Shown piece after piece: positions 767-51,400 of a stretch of DNA of 64,000 nucleotides. The notes beneath the pieces were generated by a model, which worked only from the letters and a program-made list of their open reading frames with translations, ran no database searches and was not told the origin of the DNA. The position numbers and the translations under genes are program-made. The stretch's first letter is position 1. Each line of letters starts with the position of its first letter. The DNA is from Podarcis vaucheri (Eukaryota): the NCBI GenBank assembly GCA_965113315.1, contig OZ220374.1; one strand, written 5' to 3'.

Positions 767-1219
767 TGTCAGGGAACTGACATCAGAGGAAAGGGAGGTG
801 GTAGGGCTCCCAGAGACTGGGAGAGAGTCAGCAGCTAAAGCAGGGACAAGGAGGGGGAGCGAGGGGTCTCTGGAGGAGGATCTCAGTAATGCTGAGAGAG
901 ACGCAGCAGCCCAGGCAGGAAACAGCAGGGGAGAGAAAGGGGTGAGAGACACTTCCAGCGAAAATAGCGGGGAGGTGTCAGAAGCAACTGCAGGGAGACC
1001 CATGCTTCGCCGGAAGCTGCCACGTCGTGAGTCCAGGAGACGCGTTTCCGTTAAGGAACTTCTTTGCTGGAAGCGCTTCCGCAGGCAGCCACTGTCAGAC
1101 TCTACTAGTGACTAGAGCAGACATGTCTGAGGAGCTCTGTCACACACAGAGGTTTGTGGGGCCGCACAAACTCTGAAGGGGCACAATTTTAAGCACAAGC
1201 AGCTAATCATCCCCTGACA
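767..1219 (+). repeat. 5' LTR
   Basis: TG...CA with 8-bp terminal inverted repeat. Matches 5617-6069 except G1085/A5935 by eye. Confidence 0.97.
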
Positions 1220-1221
1220 GC

Positions 1222-1232
1222 AGTCTGACAGT
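1222..1232 (+). promoter_or_regulatory. Self-priming primer-binding site (Tf1-type)
   Basis: AGTCTGACAGT, 2 nt after the 5' LTR, is the exact reverse complement of LTR 1091-1101 (ACTGTCAGACT). No TGG tRNA-type PBS is present. Confidence 0.8.
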
Positions 1233-1264
1233 CTCTGTACGCTGCCTGTGCAGGAGAAAGCATC

Positions 1265-2021
1265 ATGAGCAACCCAGCCGGAACCGGAGGGGCAGGGGTT
1301 GGAGCTGGTCCAAGCTTGGAAGAAAGGTATCAAGCTCTGGAGGTCCAACTTGCGCTGCAGACGGCGAGGCTCGAGGAGAGAAGGGCTCAGGATGCTGACA
1401 AAAAGGGGAGAACCACTCAGTTCCCCAGAAAGGTACCAGGATTGGTGCAGAAGTTTGGGGGGGGCCCCAAGGATTACCATGCCTTTAGGACTGAGATGCA
1501 ATATGCCCTGAATGTGCAGTTTGATGAGTTCCCTGATGAGGAATCGCGAGTTGCTTTCGTAATTGGGCATCTTGAGAAGGGGGCGCGGGACTGGGTTCGA
1601 CCCCTGATGGCAACGCACAACGATATCCTAAAGGACACTATGAAATTCTTTCGTGCAATGGATATCATGTTTTCCAGCGATATTGAGGAAGGGGTGGTGC
1701 GCAGACAGCTAATGGCTTGCAAGCAGGGAAGCAGATCTGTCCGTGAGTACTGGACTGAATTTACCATGCTGATTCACAGATTGGGGTGGGATTTATCGGC
1801 AGCACCCATTCAGATGCTATTTGAAGAAGGAGGGAAAGGGAGCCCGGAAATGCTATCTCTGCCAACAGCCAGGCCACTTTGCCAGAGTCTGCCCCCAGAG
1901 GAAGGAATGGCAAGGGATGGTGGGAGCAGTTGAGGGGGAAGAGCAGGGAGAAACGGAGCAGGTAAAAGCCAACGCCTGGTTGCCAACGTCAGGGCACTGC
2001 AGCCAGGCCAAAGAGCAGTGA
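1265..2021 (+). pseudogene. gag: gag (PEG10/sushi-like capsid plus CCHC knuckle), broken near 1830
   Basis: Capsid-like ORF from ATG 1265 (KFGGGPKDYHAF...RVAFVIGHLEKGARDW...QGSRSVREY). The knuckle CYLCQQPGHFARVC is in a different frame (ORF 1821-2021) directly after FEEG. Confidence 0.9.
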
Positions 2022-2029
2022 AAGTGCCC
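1961..2029 (+). promoter_or_regulatory. Putative -1 ribosomal frameshift signal (slippery heptamer plus pseudoknot)
   Basis: G GTA AAA at 1961-1967. Stem 1: 1974-1983 / 1999-2008. Stem 2: 1992-1998 / 2023-2029. pol is in the -1 frame and open from 1961. Confidence 0.75.
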
Positions 2030-5000
2030 GTGCCAGAAGCTCCTCGACCTGCTCTAGTGATTGAAGTGTCGCTAGAGCTGCAAAATGGACACCCCCTAAA
2101 AATAAAGGCGCTGTTGGACTCAGGCAGCTCCTGCAATTTTATGAGCAAGGAGTTTGCTGCTGAACATCAGATACAGACTATCCCTTTAAGCAACCCCCTG
2201 CAGGTGACCACGATCGATGGCAGGGAACTGTTGGGAGGAGGAGTTAGCTTGCAGACCGTCCCAATGATAATGAGGGTGGCAAGGCACACAGAACTGATAG
2301 CGTTTAATGTGGCCACCTTGGGAGGCGCTCCCATTATTTTGGGAATGAGCTGGCTAGCCTTACATGATCCGCTGGTGGGCTGGCATCAAAGAGTGGTTTC
2401 CTTCGGTTCAGCACATTGCTTAGAACACTGCAGGGGGGAAAAGGGGTCAGCAGGGGCCCAAGCCACCCTAGCAGGGACTGAAGTAATGGGGAAGGGGAAG
2501 GTGCCACCACAGTATGCTGATCTCAGCGACGTGTTCAGCGAGAAGGAAGCTGACCAACTACCCCCGCATAGGCCCTTTGATTGCCAGATCAATTTACTCC
2601 CTGGAGCACAGCTTCCTGTAGGCAAGTTGTATGCCATGTCAGACAGGGAAATGCAGGAGTTGCGAGCGTTCATTGACAAGAACCTGAAGAGAGGCTTCAT
2701 CAGAGAGTCCAAGGCAGCGGGGGGTAGCCCAGTGTTTTTTGTGGATAAAAAAAACACGGACAAGCCGAGGCTGGTATGTGACTTTCGGCGCCTAAATGCA
2801 GTGACAGAGCCGGCGGCTTTTCCTATGCCCAGGATTGATGATATTTTGACCAGGGTGCGAAAAGGAAAGATTTTTACAAAGCTGGACCTAAGGGGGGCGT
2901 ACAACCTGATACGTATAAGGAAAGGGGATGAATGGAAGACCACCATGTTCACCCCTTTGGGGGCATTTGAATACCTCGTTATGCCTTTTGGATTACAAAC
3001 AGGCTCCGCGTGTTTTCAAGCCTTCATGAACCACGTACTGGGGCCTTTGCTCTACAAGAATTGCGTGGCCTTCTTAGATGACGTGTTGGTGTATTCGGAG
3101 AATGAGGAGCAACATGTGAGAGACGTCAGAGAAGTGTTGAGCAGGCTGCAAGCCAACAGACTGTGGGTGAAACTGGAGAAGTGTCAGTTTCATACCAAGG
3201 AGGTGGAATTCCTGGGGTACCGCTTGTCAGACAAGGGGTTGGCCATGGACCCCGGCAAGGTTCAAGCGGTGCTGGAATGGAAAACACCCAAGACCAAGAA
3301 GGATGTGCAGAGGTTCCTAGGGTTTGGAAACTTTTATCGTAAGTTCATCCGAAACTTCGCCCACCTGACGGCGCCCATCACGGACTGTCTCAGCAGTAAA
3401 AAGAAGTTTGTTTGGACGGGGGAGGCGGAGCGAGCGTTTGAGGAACTGAAAAGGGCCTTCGCCTCTGATGAACAACTTCTACATGTGGATTTACAAAAAA
3501 AGCTGAGGGTCGAAACAGACGCTTCTGACAGAGCCATAGGGGCGGTGCTTCTTCTGCAGCCGGGGAAGGAGGGGTCAGAGTGGCGACCGTGTGCCTTCTT
3601 TTCGCGAAAGCTGAACAAATCTGAGAGGAACTACACGGTGTACGACCGGGAACTTCTTGCGATTCATGAGGCCTTCCGGAGATGGAGGCACCTGCTAATT
3701 GGTGCACAACAGAAGGTGCAAGTGTGCACGGACCATAAGAATCTAGAGTATTGGAGAACTGCGCGAGTGCTCAACCAACGGCAGTTGAGATGGGCCCAGG
3801 AGTTCTCCAAATTTAACTTTGAGATTTGTTACGTACCAGGCCCGGAGAACGTTAGGGCGGACGCTCTCTCACGCAAACCTGAATATTTGGAGGGAGAGGG
3901 TGCACCCGAAGAGACCCATGTCATTCCCGAGGACCGCTGGGTGTGTGGGGCGGCATTGGTGGGGCAAAGGGAACTGGTAGAGGGAACGGTGCAGGATGAA
4001 TACGCCCAGGACAAACTCAGGGGTCTCAGGAGGGAGGGAGACAAACCCGGGGGTTTTGAGGAGAGAGATGGGGCGTTGTACTACAAGGGAGCGTTATACA
4101 TACCTGAAGGGGAATTGAGGGAAAAGGTACTCAAGCAACTGCACGATAGCCCCACAGCAGGGCATTTTGGGCAACACAAAACCATGTGGCTGGTTACCAG
4201 GGAATTCTGGTGGCCCAAGGTCAGGGAAGATGTGCGGGAATATGTGAGAGGGTGTGACCGATGCCAACGAGCCAAGGGGGAGAGGCGGGCACCGGCAGGT
4301 TTATTAGAACCACTACCCACGCCGGAAAGGCCATGGGAGGCAGTGGCAATAGATTTCATGACTGATCTGCCCAGGTCCAAAGGGAAAACAGCCATCATGG
4401 TTGTGGTAGACCTGTTAACCAAGATGGCCCACTTTATAGCCTGCTCACATGCGGTCACAGCGGAAGAAACCGCTAAATTGTTTGTGGAAAATGTGTTTAG
4501 GCTGCATGGCGCCCCCTTGAGGGTGGTTTCTGACCGAGGGAAACAATTTACTTCCAGGTTCTGGAGGAAGCTCATGAGCTTATTGCATGTAGAGGTGAAT
4601 TTCTCTACTGCCCGTCATCCAGAAACCAACGGGCAGGCGGAAAGAGCTAATGGTGTCCTCCAGCAATATTTGAGGTGTTATGTGAATGACAGAGAGAATG
4701 ATTGGGTGGAGAAGCTGGCGTTGGCAGAATTTGCCTACAACAATGCAGAGAACGTGTCCACGGGGATGAGCCCTTTTTTGGCTAATCACGGGTGTCATCC
4801 CCGAGCCTTCCCAGGGGGGGAAGGGGAGAACTGGAGCGTTCCAGCCGCAGAACAGTTCGTTGAAGAAATGGAAGCGATCCATCGCCAGCTCTAACTTAAT
4901 TTAAACAGGGCGAAGGAGGAATATAAGAGGCAGGCAGACAAAACCAGAAGGGAAGGGGAAAGCATTAGGGTGGGGGACCAGGTGTGGCTGTCCACCCAAG

Positions 5001-5602
5001 GGTTACCATTTAAAGGAGGTTGTAAGAAGTTAAGACCCAAAAGACTGGGCCCATTTGAAGTCACGCAACAGGTCAACCCAGTGGCTTTCAGACTCCGGTT
5101 ACCGAACCACATGAAGTTGCACCCAGTGTTCCACAGGTCGTTGCTGTCACCGTATATAGGGGACAGAGAGGGGAGGGTCAATAGGGGACCAGCTATGGAG
5201 GAAAAAGAACACAGCTACCATGTAGCGGAGATTCTCGATTCCAGGTGGAAGGGAGAGCAAGTAGAGTATTTGGTAATGTGGGAAGGGGAGCCGGAGTCGG
5301 AAAACACCTGGGTCAGGGCAGAGGATGTAGATGACGAGGTTTTGATTGAAACTTTTCATCAGAGATTCCCTCGTAAACCCCAGCCAGTGGCGAGGTTCCG
5401 GAGGGAATACTTCGCCACCACCGACGAAGAAGAAGAGTTGGAGGGGTTCTCTGATTCCGAGGTGGAGGAGGATTCAGCGAGTCGGAACGAAGACCGATGG
5501 AGGGAAATGTTCGAGACGTCTGAAGATGAAGAGGATTCTTTTCGGGGTTTCAGCTCCTCACCGCCCAGAGGAGAGAGTAGGAGCGGGGGAGAAGGGGGCC
5601 CT

Positions 5603-5616
5603 GGAGGGGAGGTGGA
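5603..5616 (+). promoter_or_regulatory. Polypurine tract
   Basis: GGAGGGGAGGTGGA abuts the TG of the 3' LTR. Confidence 0.85.
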
Positions 5617-6069
5617 TGTCAGGGAACTGACATCAGAGGAAAGGGAGGTGGTAGGGCTCCCAGAGACTGGGAGAGAGTCAGCAGCTAAAGCAGGGACAAG
5701 GAGGGGGAGCGAGGGGTCTCTGGAGGAGGATCTCAGTAATGCTGAGAGAGACGCAGCAGCCCAGGCAGGAAACAGCAGGGGAGAGAAAGGGGTGAGAGAC
5801 ACTTCCAGCGAAAATAGCGGGGAGGTGTCAGAAGCAACTGCAGGGAGACCCATGCTTCGCCGGAAGCTGCCACGTCGTGAGTCCAGGAGACGCGTTTCCG
5901 TTAAGGAACTTCTTTGCTGGAAGCGCTTCCGCAGACAGCCACTGTCAGACTCTACTAGTGACTAGAGCAGACATGTCTGAGGAGCTCTGTCACACACAGA
6001 GGTTTGTGGGGCCGCACAAACTCTGAAGGGGCACAATTTTAAGCACAAGCAGCTAATCATCCCCTGACA
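5617..6069 (+). repeat. 3' LTR
   Basis: Direct repeat of 767-1219, immediately preceded by a purine tract. Confidence 0.97.
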
Positions 6070-6131
6070 ATAGAGAACCATTGTGTTTGTCTAAAGGCTT
6101 TCAGTGTGTATTTCTGAAAGAGTTCTTCCCT

Positions 6132-18789: not shown

Positions 18790-20966
18790 AGGTTTTGAGA
18801 ATGGTATGGGTGCAATATATGCAGAACAAAAGGCTAAATTAATTGTAAATAATGTGATAACGGAAGAATTTAAAATAGAAAAAGGGACATGACAGGGATG
18901 CCCAATTTCCCCATTACTTTTTATATCAGTCCTGGAGGTTTTGCTAAATATGATTAGAAGGGACCAGCTGGTTAAAGGGGTACAGGTCGGAGCTAAACAG
19001 TACAAATTGAGGGCATTTGCAGATGACCTGGTACTTGCTTTACAAGAGCCAGACACTAGTACGAAAAGGGTTTTAGAATTAATTCAAGAATTTGGTCAAG
19101 TTGCAGGATTTAAGTTGAACAAACAAAAAACCAAGGTATTGGAGAAAAACTTAACAGTTACTGAAAGGGAGAGGTTCCAGAATGAAACAGGATTAACTGT
19201 GGTTAAGAAGGTGAAATACTTGGGGATTAATATGACATCAAAAATGTGAATTTATTTAAAGACAATTATGAGAAATGTTGGACAGAGGTAAAAAAAGATC
19301 TAGAAATATGGTCAAATTTGAAGCTTTCCTTGTTAGGCCGAATAGCTGTTATTAAGATTAATGTATTGCCGAGAATGTTGTTCCTATTCCAAACATTGCA
19401 AATTGTGGACAAGATGGATTGCTTCAAGAGGTGGCAGAAAGATGTCTCGAAGTTTGTCTGGCAGGGCAAAAAACCCAGAATAAAATTTAAAATTTTAACT
19501 GATGCAAAGGAAATTGGGGGGTTTGCCCTGCCGGACTTAAAACTGTACTATGAATCAGCAGCTTTCTGCTGGATGAAAGACTGGCTACTTCTTGAGAATA
19601 CTGATATCTTGGATTTGGAAGGTTTTAATAATGTATTCGGATGGCATGCATATATATGGTATGACAAGGTTAAAGCTCATAAAGCTTTTAAAAACCATAT
19701 TGTTAGGAAAGCACTATATAATGTTTGGATTAGATATAAAGACTTGTTGGAAAATAAAACCCCAAGGTGGTTGTCGCCAATGGAGGCTAAAGCTGTGAAA
19801 AAGCTCAATATGGAGGCCAAATGGCCAAAATATTGGGAAATTTTGGAACAGGAGGGAGATAAACTGAAATTACAGAGTTATGAGGAATTGAACATCAAGG
19901 TACGAGATTGGCTCCATTATTACCAAATAATGGAGGTTTATAAACAGGATAGGAAAATTGGCTTCCAGGTGGAGAAATCAAAATTAGAAACAGAACTGTT
20001 AGAACCCAATACTAAGAATTTGTCAAGAATGTATAACTTGTTGCTGAAATGGAATACGCAAGATGAAACTGTTAAATCAGCTATGATTAAGTGGGCACAA
20101 GACATTGGTCATAACATCATGTTTGCTGACTGGGAACAGTTGTGGACCACCAGTATAAAGTTTACGGCATGTAATGCCTTAAGAGAGAATATTATGAAAA
20201 TGATTTACAGGTGGTACATGACCCCAGACAAGCTTGCAAAGATCTACCATTTGCCCGATAATAAATGTTGGAAATGCAAAGAAACTGAAGGTACTTTTTT
20301 TCACCTTTGGTGGACGTGCCCGAAGATTAAGGCCTTCTGGGAAATGATATATAATGAAATGAAAAAGGTACTTAAATGTACTTTCCCTAAGAAACCAGAG
20401 GCCTCCCTCTTGGGCATTGTCGGCCAATTGGTGCCAAAGAAGGACAGAACATTCTTTATGTATGCTACAACAGCAGCAAGAATACTCATAGCAAAGTATT
20501 GGAAGACACAAGATCTACCCACCTTGGAAGAGTGGCAGATAAAGGTGATCGATTACATGGGACTGGCTGAAATGACTGACAGAATCTGAGACCAGGGGAA
20601 GGTGACGGCGGAAGAAGATTGGAAGAAATTTAAAATCTTAAGAAACACTGTAAAATTAATGAATGTTAAAATGTTGTGGTTTTACAAAGTAAGGGATTAC
20701 AGCTGGTAAAGATTAAGTAAAAGAAAAGAAAAGGAAAAATTGGATTAAAATAAGGGGAAGGATTTGCTGAAATAAATTTGGGTATTGGAATGCAGAAAGG
20801 GGAGGTATGGGGAAGTCGATGAAGTAAGTTTAAGGGGGGGGAAAGGAGTTGAAATTATATGTGTTTGTTTGTTTTTGTATGTATCTATGTGTAATGTGTT
20901 TTGTGTGTACTGTATGTGTTTTTATAATTTGTGAAAATTTAATAAATATTTATATTTTAAAAAAAA
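18790..20966 (+). mobile_element. 5'-truncated L1-type LINE (RT C-half, CCHC, 3' UTR, polyA)
   Basis: G*QGCPISP, AFADDL, KYLGI, CWKC...HLWWTC. Frameshift near 19245. AATAAA plus A tail. 16-bp TSD GATAGTGGCAAGTTTA (18774-18789 / 20967-20982). Confidence 0.94.
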
Positions 20967-46784: not shown

Positions 46785-46900
46785 ATACCCTGCCCATCTG
46801 GCTGGGTTTCCCCAGCCACTCTGGGCGGCTTCCAACAAAATATTAAAAAAACAAAACATCAGACATTAAAAACTTTCCTAATCAGGGCTGCCTTCAGATG
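46785..46900 (-). mobile_element. L2 3'-end stub
   Basis: Near-identical to 28766-28870. Confidence 0.8.
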
Positions 46901-47433
46901 CTTTATACTAGGACTTGGCCATGATTTGGTCAGAACTGCGTGAAAGGGGCTGCACGTGTGACAGTCCAGACCCAGCAGGCAGTAACTGGGCCAGAAAGAA
47001 AGGCAACTGTGTTGTGGGGCACAAGGTGAGTGTGCATGGGGGAAGTGAAGCCGGAGTCTGATTTGGGAGAGGGGGGCAGTGATTTGTGGGGAACTGTACC
47101 AGCCAGGAGGCAAGAGTCGGAGGCAAAGGAAGCTTCAGAGCTGGAGGATGGAGCACAGGATGGGTGGGAAGAAGAGAAGGAAGAGGCAGGTCAGGCAAGT
47201 GAAGGTCCAGGCACTTCCCCACCCTCGCCTGCACCACTGTCTCCCAGAACCAGAAAGGGATTGCAAAGGGATGGGCAGAGGAAGCTGCCATGCAGGCACA
47301 GTCTCCGGCTACATGTGCACAGCCCATCAGGGGAAGGTACATAAACTGTTGGAGGGAGAGTGGCCTCCGGTTGTTGCAACTGTTCCATACAGTGCAGACC
47401 TAGGAATAGCTGCGTAGATGCTAGGAGCATAGA

Positions 47434-48420
47434 TGTCATGAACTGGCAGGACAATGGGGAGGAGGAAGAGGCAGTGGCATAGCGTGGGGGTGCCAGGGGT
47501 GCCATCCGCACTGGGCGCAACATTTGGGGGGGCGCGTTTGGCCGGCCCTCCTCGAGGAAGCACGAACCCCACTGTCCTCGGACCTCCTCCGAAGCCTGGC
47601 GGTGGGGCGGAGAGACCTTCTCCCCGCGCCAGCCTTCGGAAGGATGCTCCGAAGCCTGGCGGTGGGGCGGAGAGACCTTCTCCCCGCGCCAGCCTTCGGA
47701 AGGATGCTCCGAAGCCTGGCGGTGGGGCGGAGAGACCTTCTCCCCGCACCAGCCTTCGGATGGCTGTCCTGAAGACTTGTGGTGGGAGCAGTGACGTAGC
47801 GTGGGGGGCGCAGGGGGGCCTGCTGCACCTGGCGCAACATCTGGGAGGGCGCGGAAGAGCCTCGAGTGCTAAAATCCACGGGTTAGGGGGCGCAAATTAC
47901 TTGCCTTGCCCCGGGTGCTGAGAACCCACGCTACGCCACTGGGAAGAGGAAGAGGAAGAGGAAGAATAGGATCTCGACAAGAGCTGAGGCAGGCTTGGTA
48001 TGGGGAAGGAGAGGCTGGTATAGGAAGTACTCATGAGGTGGTGGAAGATGATGAGGGGGTGGAGGCCAGTGCATGGGAACCAGAGCAGCGGGACCCATCC
48101 CCAGAGCCAGAGGTACCCCTGTCTCCATGAACATGGTGGACTCTGAGGCATAGGGAGCAGTGGCCAGGGCGCTCCAGGAGCCGGAGGCAGGCAAGGACCC
48201 ACAGCCCAGCTCCCTAGCTGACTTGGATGCTCCTGGACCACCACAGGACTGTGCTTTGAGGTTGACTCTGGGCTGTTTTCTGACCGCTGGACTTCAGGCG
48301 TGGCTACTTTGCTTGACCCTGAACCTCGTTTCCTGACCTTTGGACTTTGCTTGTGTGGACTGACCCTCAGACTTAGAACTTGGACTTGGCACACTGACTT
48401 GCTGCCCGGGGTGCTGGACA
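47434..48420 (+). mobile_element. Solo Gypsy-type LTR interrupted by a hAT MITE
   Basis: TGTCATGAACTGG...CTGGACA, related to 13252-13936. TSD is poor (ATAGA / GTAGG). Confidence 0.7.
47472..47941. mobile_element. hAT MITE containing three 60-bp tandem repeats
   Basis: TIR CAGTGGCATAGCGTGGG / CCCACGCTACGCCACTG, perfect 8-bp TSD GGAAGAGG, repeat at 47587-47760. Confidence 0.9.
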
Positions 48421-51400
48421 GTAGGTATCCAGAGCTGTAGAAGTGACCGTTATTTTTGACAGTACAGTAGTTAATGATCTGTTGTGTGCATTCCTTTGGC
48501 CAGAAAGTGCCCTTGACACTAACGATGTCTCTGGTAGAAGAGACAGGGGGGTGTATTTTCCTTGAGGGGAACCTTGATAGCTATGGATGCATAATGGGCC
48601 AAGAGACTCGCTTTATTGAAGAGACATCAAACTTTCAAAACTTGGATAGGAAAGCAATTTAGGTTTCAGCTTGCAATTGTACACTGTAATCACATGTTAA
48701 TAATTTTGAGGTTTAAACAGTCCCAGTGTATTTTGAGCATACAGACCATGGTGGGGAACCCCGCCCTACACACACCACTTGGGATGCCACCACCATGTCA
48801 GTCACTTGATGTCAGCTGACTTAACTTCAAAGGGAGGAATTGGGAGTGCTCTCCTAATTAATTTCTTCCTTTGCAGGTGATTTGGATTTAGGCTATATCT
48901 GCAAAGCAATATTTTTCCTTTGCAGATGTGGCTTGCTTGAATTAAGCTGTGTCTGAAAAGGAAGCAGGGTTTGTGGCAGAGATCAGTTCCACTTAAGAAC
49001 TCCAACCCAAGTGGAGCTATTCCCAGTGGGCTTGTGGGAAGGGTCCTAGCAGGCTTGCATTTGGCGCCAAATTGAAAAGGTGCCCTGTTTGCATAGGAAC
49101 AATCAGAAGTGCCTTCTAGCACTCAACTGTTCCTCTGCAGCTGAGGCTTTGCCTGCCCCACACCTGATGGGTGGCATAGCTAAGGGCGGAAATGACCAAC
49201 TTTGGCTTGCAGACAGGTAGGAACTGGGTGTAAAAAGAGTTTCCTAGTTTGCTTCCTCTGTACTTAAGTCACTGCAAGTCTCATGCATAAATCCATTAGA
49301 CACTGGCATATTTATACATTACAGTAAGGTTCCTGTGCATTTTGTGAGCTTTCAGAGCAGAGACCACCACTGTGCAGCTGAATTGATCCTAGGACTGTTT
49401 ACTATTGAATTGTAAAAGTAAGGTAAGGAAACATGCCAGTAAGTGATTTAGAATAAAACTCTCTACAGTTTCATGGGAGTAAATTCCTTTGAATACAGTA
49501 GGAAATCCTTTTCAGAAGCAGCCCTTCCCTCAACGGCTAAGCTACAAAAAAGGAGGAATGGTCAGATCAGAGGCTGCAGGGCCAGCCCTACCATTAGACA
49601 GAGTGAAGTTGTTGCCTCAGCAGCAGATGTGTGAAGGCAGTCACAGGCCTCCCAACCATTCCTCTCGAGCTCACCACCCTTCTTCCAGCCTCTTGTCAAC
49701 ATCTCTTGGCCGCAAGGCTTGTTCATTGTTCGCCTCAGAGACTGCCATGTGCCCTCTAGGTTTGGCTGCTCCTTTCAGGTACAGGGGAGGACAGTGTTGA
49801 ATTAAGATTCACCTGTTGGTCTGGTCAGATTTTATGCAGTATGTGGAATGGGGGAGGCCTGGGTGAGTGTTAGACACACACACACACCGCAAAATCAATT
49901 AAAAATTAAAATCTCTGAGGACCCCAGGCCATCAGCTGGCTATCCCTATTATATAAGTCCCTGGTTGTCATGCTGCCCCACCAGTGAGTTAGGCTAAAGC
50001 AGCTGACTTAGGCAGCAAAATTCCATGGAGCAGCTGCTCCACCCGTCCCGGCCACCACTGGGGTCATGTGGTGATAGCATCTGGCAACATCTCACTAGAT
50101 CTCGTAGGAAGCTGGTGACGCAGCCACCACAGCCACATAACCCTGGTATACAAGGCTTTGGGGGGGGGGGAGGAATACCTTGCCGTTTAGCCTAAGGCGG
50201 CAAATCAGGATGAGCGACCCCTGCTATTTGGCCTGTAGGAGAAAAGTGTGGAGGAGGTATAGGTATCATTTTTAAGCAGAGCTGGATAACTAGTATTTGA
50301 AGCCCAAAGACAAGAATGTGATCACCTACATCTTGGTGCAAAGCAAGAAACCCACAAAGCATCAGCTAAACCCAGTTCTTCCTTTAGCAGCTATCCGTAA
50401 TGCAAGGTTAATGCATTTCCAGCTGTCTGTTCCTCCCATAGATGTCTGATCATCTCCTTTCCCCACATATTAGTCATAAAGTAGGAGGTGTGTCTCCCCC
50501 ACTGTGGGAGGAATGCGATTGGAAGAGTGGCTCTCCAGTTGCTACAGCCACTTTGGTTGTTCCCCAACCAAATTTTGCTGTTTCAGATTATGATGTTTAC
50601 ATGTCAGACTCTATAACCACTGTTCTTTTGTTCTCTAAGTCAGATGCAGTGGCTTTGCAGTGGTTTAAAGAATGGGGATGAGAGCTGAAATTTGACTAAA
50701 CATGGTAAATTTCCTTATAACTCCAGCTGGCCATTTTATCCTATACTGTGATTTCCCTTACTCTGAAGTGCTGGAGTCAAGGGAGTTTCCTTACTTAGAA
50801 CAAGGAAATGGCATGGATACAATGGGCTTGATTTTGGCTCGGTGGTGAGCATTAATTTTACATTTTGCAAGGACTGTCTTCAAAACCCAGCATAACAATA
50901 ATTTATCTCCCTGAATCCCTTCGCAGCAGGCTGCTCAAACTGCACGTGTTCTTACTAACTAGTATTGCTAGGAGTAGGAATAAGCGGGGTTTCAAAACAA
51001 CATGTTTTATTTTAATTTTAAAAATACAATTGAGAAAAGATTCTAGTTCATTTTATTCACACTATTGGACTGGAAATCCTAGTAGTTGATTTGCTTCTCT
51101 GAATATTTGATTACAGGCGTACCAGTTCACAAATGTCACATGACAATGAAGGTTTATTGCTTAACCATTGAATTATGACATTATTTAATAAAGTGTAGGT
51201 TGTTGCTGGCAGAAATATGTTGAGCATTCAGAAGTAGGTGAATTTTTGCATTGGACAACCCCAGTGTTTACTGCTAAGACAGTCCCATGAGCCAAAGTTA
51301 TTTTAGAACACTGTGTGCTAAGAATAGAAAAGTCTATTTCTTATCCCTGTCAGTTTCACATGTGTTCATTATTAAGTCACTTCTCTCCAGTTTCTGTATT

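Follow-up and report, generated by a model that had tools for sequence, protein, structure and literature searches.

The stretch of DNA analyzed here (the window, 64,000 nucleotides) carries a single Ty3/Gypsy element at positions 767 to 6069 on the plus strand. The two LTRs (767-1219 and 5617-6069; TG...CA, 453 nt) differ by 1 mismatch in 453 nt, and a 5-bp target duplication, itself with one mismatch, borders the element at 762-766 and 6070-6074. Pfam domains were found for gag, CCHC, PR, RT, RNase H, integrase, SH3/GPF, and a chromodomain; with the order PR-RT-RH-IN and a C-terminal chromodomain, both of which define chromoviruses, the element is a young chromovirus of the Tf1/sushi type. 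The gag region (1229-2021) has a deletion of approximately 257 bp near position 1830 compared with sibling copies, after which the CCHC knuckle now lies in a different frame. The PR-RT-RH-IN core of pol, identified from its open reading frame and Pfam matches (1934-4894), is ended by an in-frame stop at 4892-4894 that divides the integrase core from the tail. The window copy is dead, owing to this stop and the gag deletion. Downstream lie the integrase SH3/GPF domain (4973-5155; PF24626, E = 3e-19) and the chromodomain (5216-5365; PF00385), which keeps only the first two of the three aromatic cage residues (Y, W, Y) that characterize group I (PMC3605345) and lacks the third (WEGE). The element resembles vertebrate Tf1/sushi (V-clade) chromoviruses of the Metaviridae in its gag-CCHC, PR-RT-RH-IN, GPF/SH3, and chromodomain arrangement, its self-priming primer-binding site (PBS), its TG...CA LTRs, its 5-bp target duplication, and its lack of env, but differs from them in the incomplete cage and in a 210-residue post-chromodomain tail that runs over the polypurine tract (PPT) and U3. 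Pfam searches with the 100 longest of the 147 other frames in the window returned no host exon and only a LINE RT. The latter belongs to a LINE-like remnant at 18893-20586 (+), in which the RT match (18893-19246) is followed by a 452-codon open frame with no Pfam match. The window is also GC rich at 46900-48600, with a 60-bp tandem repeat in about three copies at 47587-47786; several long frames that lack Pfam matches are open there on both strands.

Beyond the stop, the plus-strand frame 4895-5965 stays open for 356 codons, from the SH3/GPF domain to the basic cluster, and terminates at 5963-5965. The first-pass annotation had described this frame as continuing past the chromodomain and across the PPT (5603-5616, translated GGEVD), with 115 codons inside the 3' LTR; the open reading frame and the LTR pair confirmed this description. 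As had also been stated, the 5' LTR carries this frame open as well; measured here from stop to stop, it runs over 735-1115. The further claim that pol reads through into U3 applies to the family but not to the window copy. The same terminal stop was reached in 24 of 29 siblings and frameshifts were present in 5, while the stop at 4892-4894 that interrupts the window copy was found in none of the 29. These siblings came from a DNA search that returned 2,390 candidate places; 40 of these were scored and 30 retrieved, and the set is biased to young copies. Six of the 10 full-length siblings had an uninterrupted pol frame of 1,343 codons, and all 10 had the same tail end, exact 5-bp target duplications, and LTR pairs differing by 0 to 3 nt. 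The closest named proteins were from Podarcis muralis, with 89% identity across the tail, which points to a lacertid lizard as the host. In a sister family found with P0003 as the query, the equivalent stop ended the frame in 24 of 30 copies. One copy (L117) had a frameshift at the PPT/LTR junction and regained the family frame about 15 codons later, which suggests compensating frameshifts.

The 5' LTR contains a segment (1091-1101) that pairs with 1222-1232 (fold z score of -2.26), giving a self-priming PBS complementary to the LTR; this arrangement is described as a trait of the Tf1/sushi group (PMC6317226). Of the 28 sister copies for which an LTR pair was available, 23 had such a site, and in 16 of these it began 22 nt before the stop; the other 7 had early stops, frameshifts, or shifted projections. 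Because the self-priming site sets the predicted start of R, and with it the RNA 5' end, we infer that the U3 of the 3' LTR spans 5617-5940, that all of its 108 codons are coding, and that the pol stop falls 22 nt into the predicted R-U5 (5941-6069). Such a U3 can be translated because the genomic RNA includes its 3' copy; the predicted start is downstream of the 5' copy, and the frame in the 5' LTR is a passive duplicate. A separate protein from the 5' LTR was considered and rejected, since the only in-frame ATGs are at 762, in flanking host DNA, and at 1002, which is not conserved. None of 13 poly(A) hexamers searched for occurred past 5941 in the predicted R-U5, and no TATA box was obvious by eye before the predicted start, a difference from the LTR model of fish Sushi in the part of PMC3601003 that we drew on. 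Contigs from four runs, which we guess to be of RNA, covered related families; neither ends nor strand can be read from them.

The selection on the tail was examined with the Nei-Gojobori dN/dS on 19 natural open-frame copies in a protein-guided alignment. Between families A and B, the values were 0.05 for the chromodomain, 0.03 and 0.06 for two motifs (motif 1 and motif 2) that follow it, 0.67 for the stretch from the motifs to the PPT, and 0.31 for the whole U3, within which the spacer had 0.46 and the terminal basic motif with its CW dipeptide (the basic-CW motif) had 0.13. Families C and D gave 0.17 for the chromodomain, saturation for motif 1, 0.33 for motif 2, 0.83 for the motif-to-PPT stretch, 0.35 for the whole U3, 0.47 for the U3 spacer, and 0.14 for the basic-CW motif. 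Among families A to D the whole-U3 value was 0.27 to 0.40, with many other pairs saturated at synonymous sites. The spacer ranged from 0.46 to 0.59, where the protein-guided alignment may depress dN, and its changes were nearly even over the three codon positions (150, 145, and 172). The basic-CW motif showed synonymous turnover (TGC/TGT and Arg, Lys, and Leu codons). Length changes gave the same picture: the distance from the LTR start to the CW, measured with DNA anchors only, had the same phase in 110 of 116 copies (an LTR start was found in 121 copies, and 9 duplicates were dropped), and all eight U3 length classes with at least two copies (184 to 298 nt) shared one phase. When copies were chosen by the upstream SH3 domain alone (30 fetched, 4 skipped, and 2 without the anchor), the CW anchor was in phase in 22 of 24. 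Pairwise DNA gap lengths were noisy between distant pairs, and a length control on R-U5 was ill-defined (end pattern in 38 copies) and was not relied on. Judged from the kept phase and the dN/dS values, U3 is protein coding, as the first-pass annotation had proposed, with a strongly constrained last third and a spacer constrained mostly at the level of the frame. A stop after the chromodomain, random frame breaks, and a dN/dS near 1 were looked for as signs against coding, and none was found across the copies and families, where the frame was kept. A vertebrate LTR promoter is thereby shown to evolve under protein-coding constraint.

This layout has a precedent in plants. In the parts of the sources that we drew on, pol of the CRM group A chromoviruses enters the 3' LTR and encodes a targeting motif there (PMC3059260), and the open reading frame also extends into the LTR in sugar-beet Bingo1-4 and 7 (PMC3605345). 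CRM and some Bingo elements are closer to the window element than the retroviral nef and sag, which had been named as precedents, and the U3 read-through is a vertebrate variant of an already described plant layout. The window element likewise extends its frame into the 3' LTR, but the CR motif of CRM replaces the chromodomain and the PBS is of the tRNA-Met type, whereas here the chromodomain is kept upstream and priming is by the element itself; also unlike CRM are the TIM-like motifs before the PPT and the basic-CW motif encoded in the LTR. We found no report of U3 read-through in vertebrate chromoviruses in the literature searched, which consisted mostly of open papers with Repbase and GyDB outside its scope.

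The sequence between the chromodomain and the PPT had been described as an acidic tract in a promoter-encoded tail. It is not a generic tract but consists of two tandem repeats of a candidate helix, an acidic linker, and (F/L)xGF, which lie before the PPT and outside the LTR and resemble TIM/IBM motifs. Motif 1 (5393-5449) has F, an 8-residue acidic linker, and LEGF, which is LxGF in the window's family and FxGF in most relatives; motif 2 (5498-5551) has a predicted helix, F, a 9-residue acidic linker with a CK2-type site, and FRGF. The linkers contain 5 to 6 acidic residues and S/T-x-x-D/E, and the F-to-F spacing is 8 to 9, compared with 8 in JPO2 M1 and PogZ. As described in a review, a TIM has an obligate helix and an acidic linker of 8 to 16 residues, frequently a substrate of CK2, to which an FxGF may be added; the FxGF is uniquely tied to recognition by LEDGF and HRP2 (PMC9987994). 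Reference ligands were taken from solved LEDGF-ligand fusion constructs (JPO2 M1, JPO2 M2, PogZ, and MLL1), to which a search with a host LEDGF exon had led, and a motif pattern was built on these four after the tail had been viewed and then loosened so that L could stand in place of the first F. The pattern matched twice in the tail and nowhere else in the 1,275-residue relative P0001; in shuffled tails it matched once in 68 of 20,000 and twice in 0 of 20,000. With the relaxed pattern, both motifs were present in 93 of the 101 copies open to the LTR and at least one in 99, and at least one strict FxGF was present in 100 of the 101. The F, G, and F columns were invariant in an alignment of 11 sequences with 40 to 55% identity to the window. 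Among 149 profile hits the pattern occurred in 6; seven hits were looked up, and the five with names were all from Podarcis muralis, so that the reach shown for the motifs is the lacertids. A fold model gave a confident chromodomain and a mostly disordered tail, in line with the disorder proposed earlier; helices were predicted with low confidence ahead of motif 2 and across the CW motif, and none at motif 1 (pLDDT under 50). The host genome encodes two LEDGF-domain genes.

On this evidence the two motifs are likely mimics of LEDGF/HRP2 ligands, with binding predicted from their sequence. They share with the motifs of JPO2 (CDCA7L), PogZ, MLL1, and IWS1 the order of F, an acidic S/T linker of 8 to 10 residues, and FxGF, the helix before the F being predicted here for motif 2 with low confidence, and JPO2 has the same layout of two motifs per protein, but the motifs described here differ in being encoded by a mobile element, in their putative binding, and in the LxGF of motif 1 in the window's family. 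The motif region, used as a query against PDB sequences, had a single match, put down to chance (E = 1.7), and an Atlas search with the tail of a relative gave no usable match. FFAT, LxCxE, PIP, and Ku-binding motifs fitted poorly by eye. No report of TIM or FxGF motifs in a retrotransposon integrase was found in the literature searched, which consisted mostly of the main texts of open papers.

The U3-encoded part of the tail ends in the basic-CW motif (5843-5935, with the CW at 5915-5920). A classical bipartite nuclear localization signal (NLS) has two basic residues, a linker of 10 to 12 residues, and a segment with three of five residues basic. The earlier description of an NLS-like basic cluster was borne out as far as the pattern is concerned, while import itself is only predicted: among 88 copies whose frame extends 200 nt or more into the LTR, 83 had the CW, and in 79 of the 88 it lay inside the linker of a bipartite-NLS pattern. 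The linker carries a conserved helix of the form hydrophobic-x-x-hydrophobic-hydrophobic-C-W, predicted with low confidence. In the integrase of Ty1, the AC40-binding domain sits within the linker of a bipartite NLS (PMC7459421). The window tail is similar in having a C-terminal bipartite-NLS pattern with a conserved linker, and by this analogy a second host contact in the CW linker is plausible; the two sequences are unrelated, and the window motif is encoded in U3.

The related lineages differed in both the cage and the tail. Most relatives of the window element lacked the first and third cage residues. Profile hits led to two further lineages in this genome, named here, like the others, by their RT identity. 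The RT 65% lineage (L183 and L184) had a single textbook TIM-like motif directly after the chromodomain and continued about 105 codons past the PPT; it yielded no LTR pair, so that its LTR start was placed solely by the PPT and the terminal motif. Of the 150 matches to P0140, from this lineage, the majority span only residues 81 to 140, apparently a separate high-copy repeat. In the RT 68-69% lineage (L198-L211 and L213), F is followed by an 8-residue linker that is S/T rich, not acidic, and by FRGF, and pol ran 658 nt into the 790-nt LTR in all three copies with LTR pairs; its chromodomain lacks even the central cage W, and its tail ends in a basic cluster and LLxWC. The RT 53-55% lineage (L154-L177 and L179-L182) is young and has an intact Y-W-Y chromodomain and no FxGF. 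In four of five fetched copies of this lineage, pol covered the first 330 to 350 nt of the 3' LTR (about 110 codons), ending in RRSARL, which is the acidic-patch motif of HMGN proteins (PMC12487698, part consulted). The coding of U3 is therefore independent of the FxGF mechanism. A tail-less lineage (L061 and L148-L153) had the stop directly after an intact chromodomain in four of six copies, the other two being broken earlier, and represents a natural control in the same genome. All FxGF lineages lacked the full Y-W-Y cage as defined in PMC3605345, and the two lineages without FxGF kept it. In an unrooted IN+SH3 tree of 18 copies, the FxGF and non-FxGF lineages were separated with a support of 100; because this is one split, cage loss and FxGF gain count as one event and not as repeated support.

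LEDGF is the chromatin tether used by HIV. We consider it fairly probable, from the motifs and their conservation, that the integrase tail docks LEDGF/HRP2 through its FxGF motifs and, together with import by the U3-encoded NLS, biases insertion to H3K36-methylated transcription units. The tail would stay attached to integrase, and the bipartite NLS would import the integration complex into the nucleus. Through the IBD/TND of LEDGF/p75 or HRP2, to which the FxGF motifs would then attach, the complex would become anchored on transcribed chromatin carrying H3K36 methylation. Phosphorylation of the linkers by CK2 may tune motif binding, the CW linker may serve as a second host-binding site, as in Ty1, and LEDGF tethering would replace targeting by the chromodomain. 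The proposed host factor and the proposed outcome, integration into transcribed genes, are those of lentiviral integrases with LEDGF/p75. HIV-1 integrase engages LEDGF by a structurally prearranged site and not by an unstructured IBM (PMC10854676, in part), whereas the window tail would act by linear-motif mimicry, and the 2023 TND review, in the portion used, names no hijackers of the LEDGF TND other than lentiviral integrases (PMC9987994). If the proposal is true, a retrotransposon with a cellular FxGF would have converged on LEDGF by another route. The likely mimicry of LEDGF motifs is the main point, with the U3 read-through alone of moderate note. A candidate host factor and a 20-residue motif can now be named for the insertion-site choice of vertebrate Ty3/Gypsy elements.

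A related possibility is that the motifs are true TIMs with a role other than site selection, in which LEDGF/HRP2 or another TND protein (TFIIS, IWS1, PNUTS, MED26, or elongin A) stabilizes integrase, retains it on chromatin, or licenses transcription of the new insert. Many TNDs bind TIMs (PMC9987994, in part), and the 40 best young copies of the 2,390 candidates came from 16 contigs and formed no obvious cluster. We regard this role as unlikely, since FxGF is tied specifically to LEDGF and HRP2 and the motifs are at the C terminus of integrase, as are the CR motifs of plants and the targeting domain of Ty1 (PMC3059260 and PMC7459421, parts consulted). The tail could also be a module for nuclear import and spacing only, an NLS or an anchor to the nucleosome acidic patch, with the FxGF look-alikes as a structural internal repeat that packs against the chromodomain or marks a protease site. 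The frequency of the bipartite-NLS pattern and the RRSARL-bearing, FxGF-free U3 tail of the RT 53-55% lineage fit such a module, which nevertheless leaves unexplained two exact TIM-spaced motifs with a dN/dS under 0.1 in a disordered region; we consider it quite unlikely. It is very improbable that the frame is open only as a consequence of the purine-rich composition of the promoter, with conservation at the DNA level: in dinucleotide shuffles of one copy the 115 LTR codons stayed open by chance in 100 of 5,000 (2%), an antisense frame is also open, and the spacer evolves as described above, but the synonymous turnover and low dN/dS of the basic-CW motif and the single phase of the length classes argue against it, so that it is largely refuted for the basic-CW motif and possible for the spacer sequence, not for the spacer frame. 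In the same shuffles all 211 post-chromodomain codons stayed open in 6 of 5,000, and the remaining two plus-strand frames over the tail contain 3 and 8 stops. The antisense frame (5359-5961, minus strand, 200 codons) overlaps the tail and probably mirrors the sense frame, which is purine rich.

A broader reading can also be put forward, at slightly less than even odds. The lizard clade may have dropped methyl-lysine reading by the chromodomain, gained copies of host LEDGF/HRP2 motifs, and come to target transcribed gene bodies by the tether of HIV, though through true motif mimicry, while a sister lineage would use the U3-encoded, HMGN-like RRSARL; the LTR-encoded integrase tail could then be an exchangeable targeting cassette of vertebrate chromoviruses. 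Motif-bearing and motif-free families coexist in one genome, both young and at high copy number, and their insertion bias would be directly comparable given an annotation. Separately, in every family searched a large part of the older chromovirus copies lay on one 41-Mb contig, as would be expected of a repeat-rich W-type chromosome.
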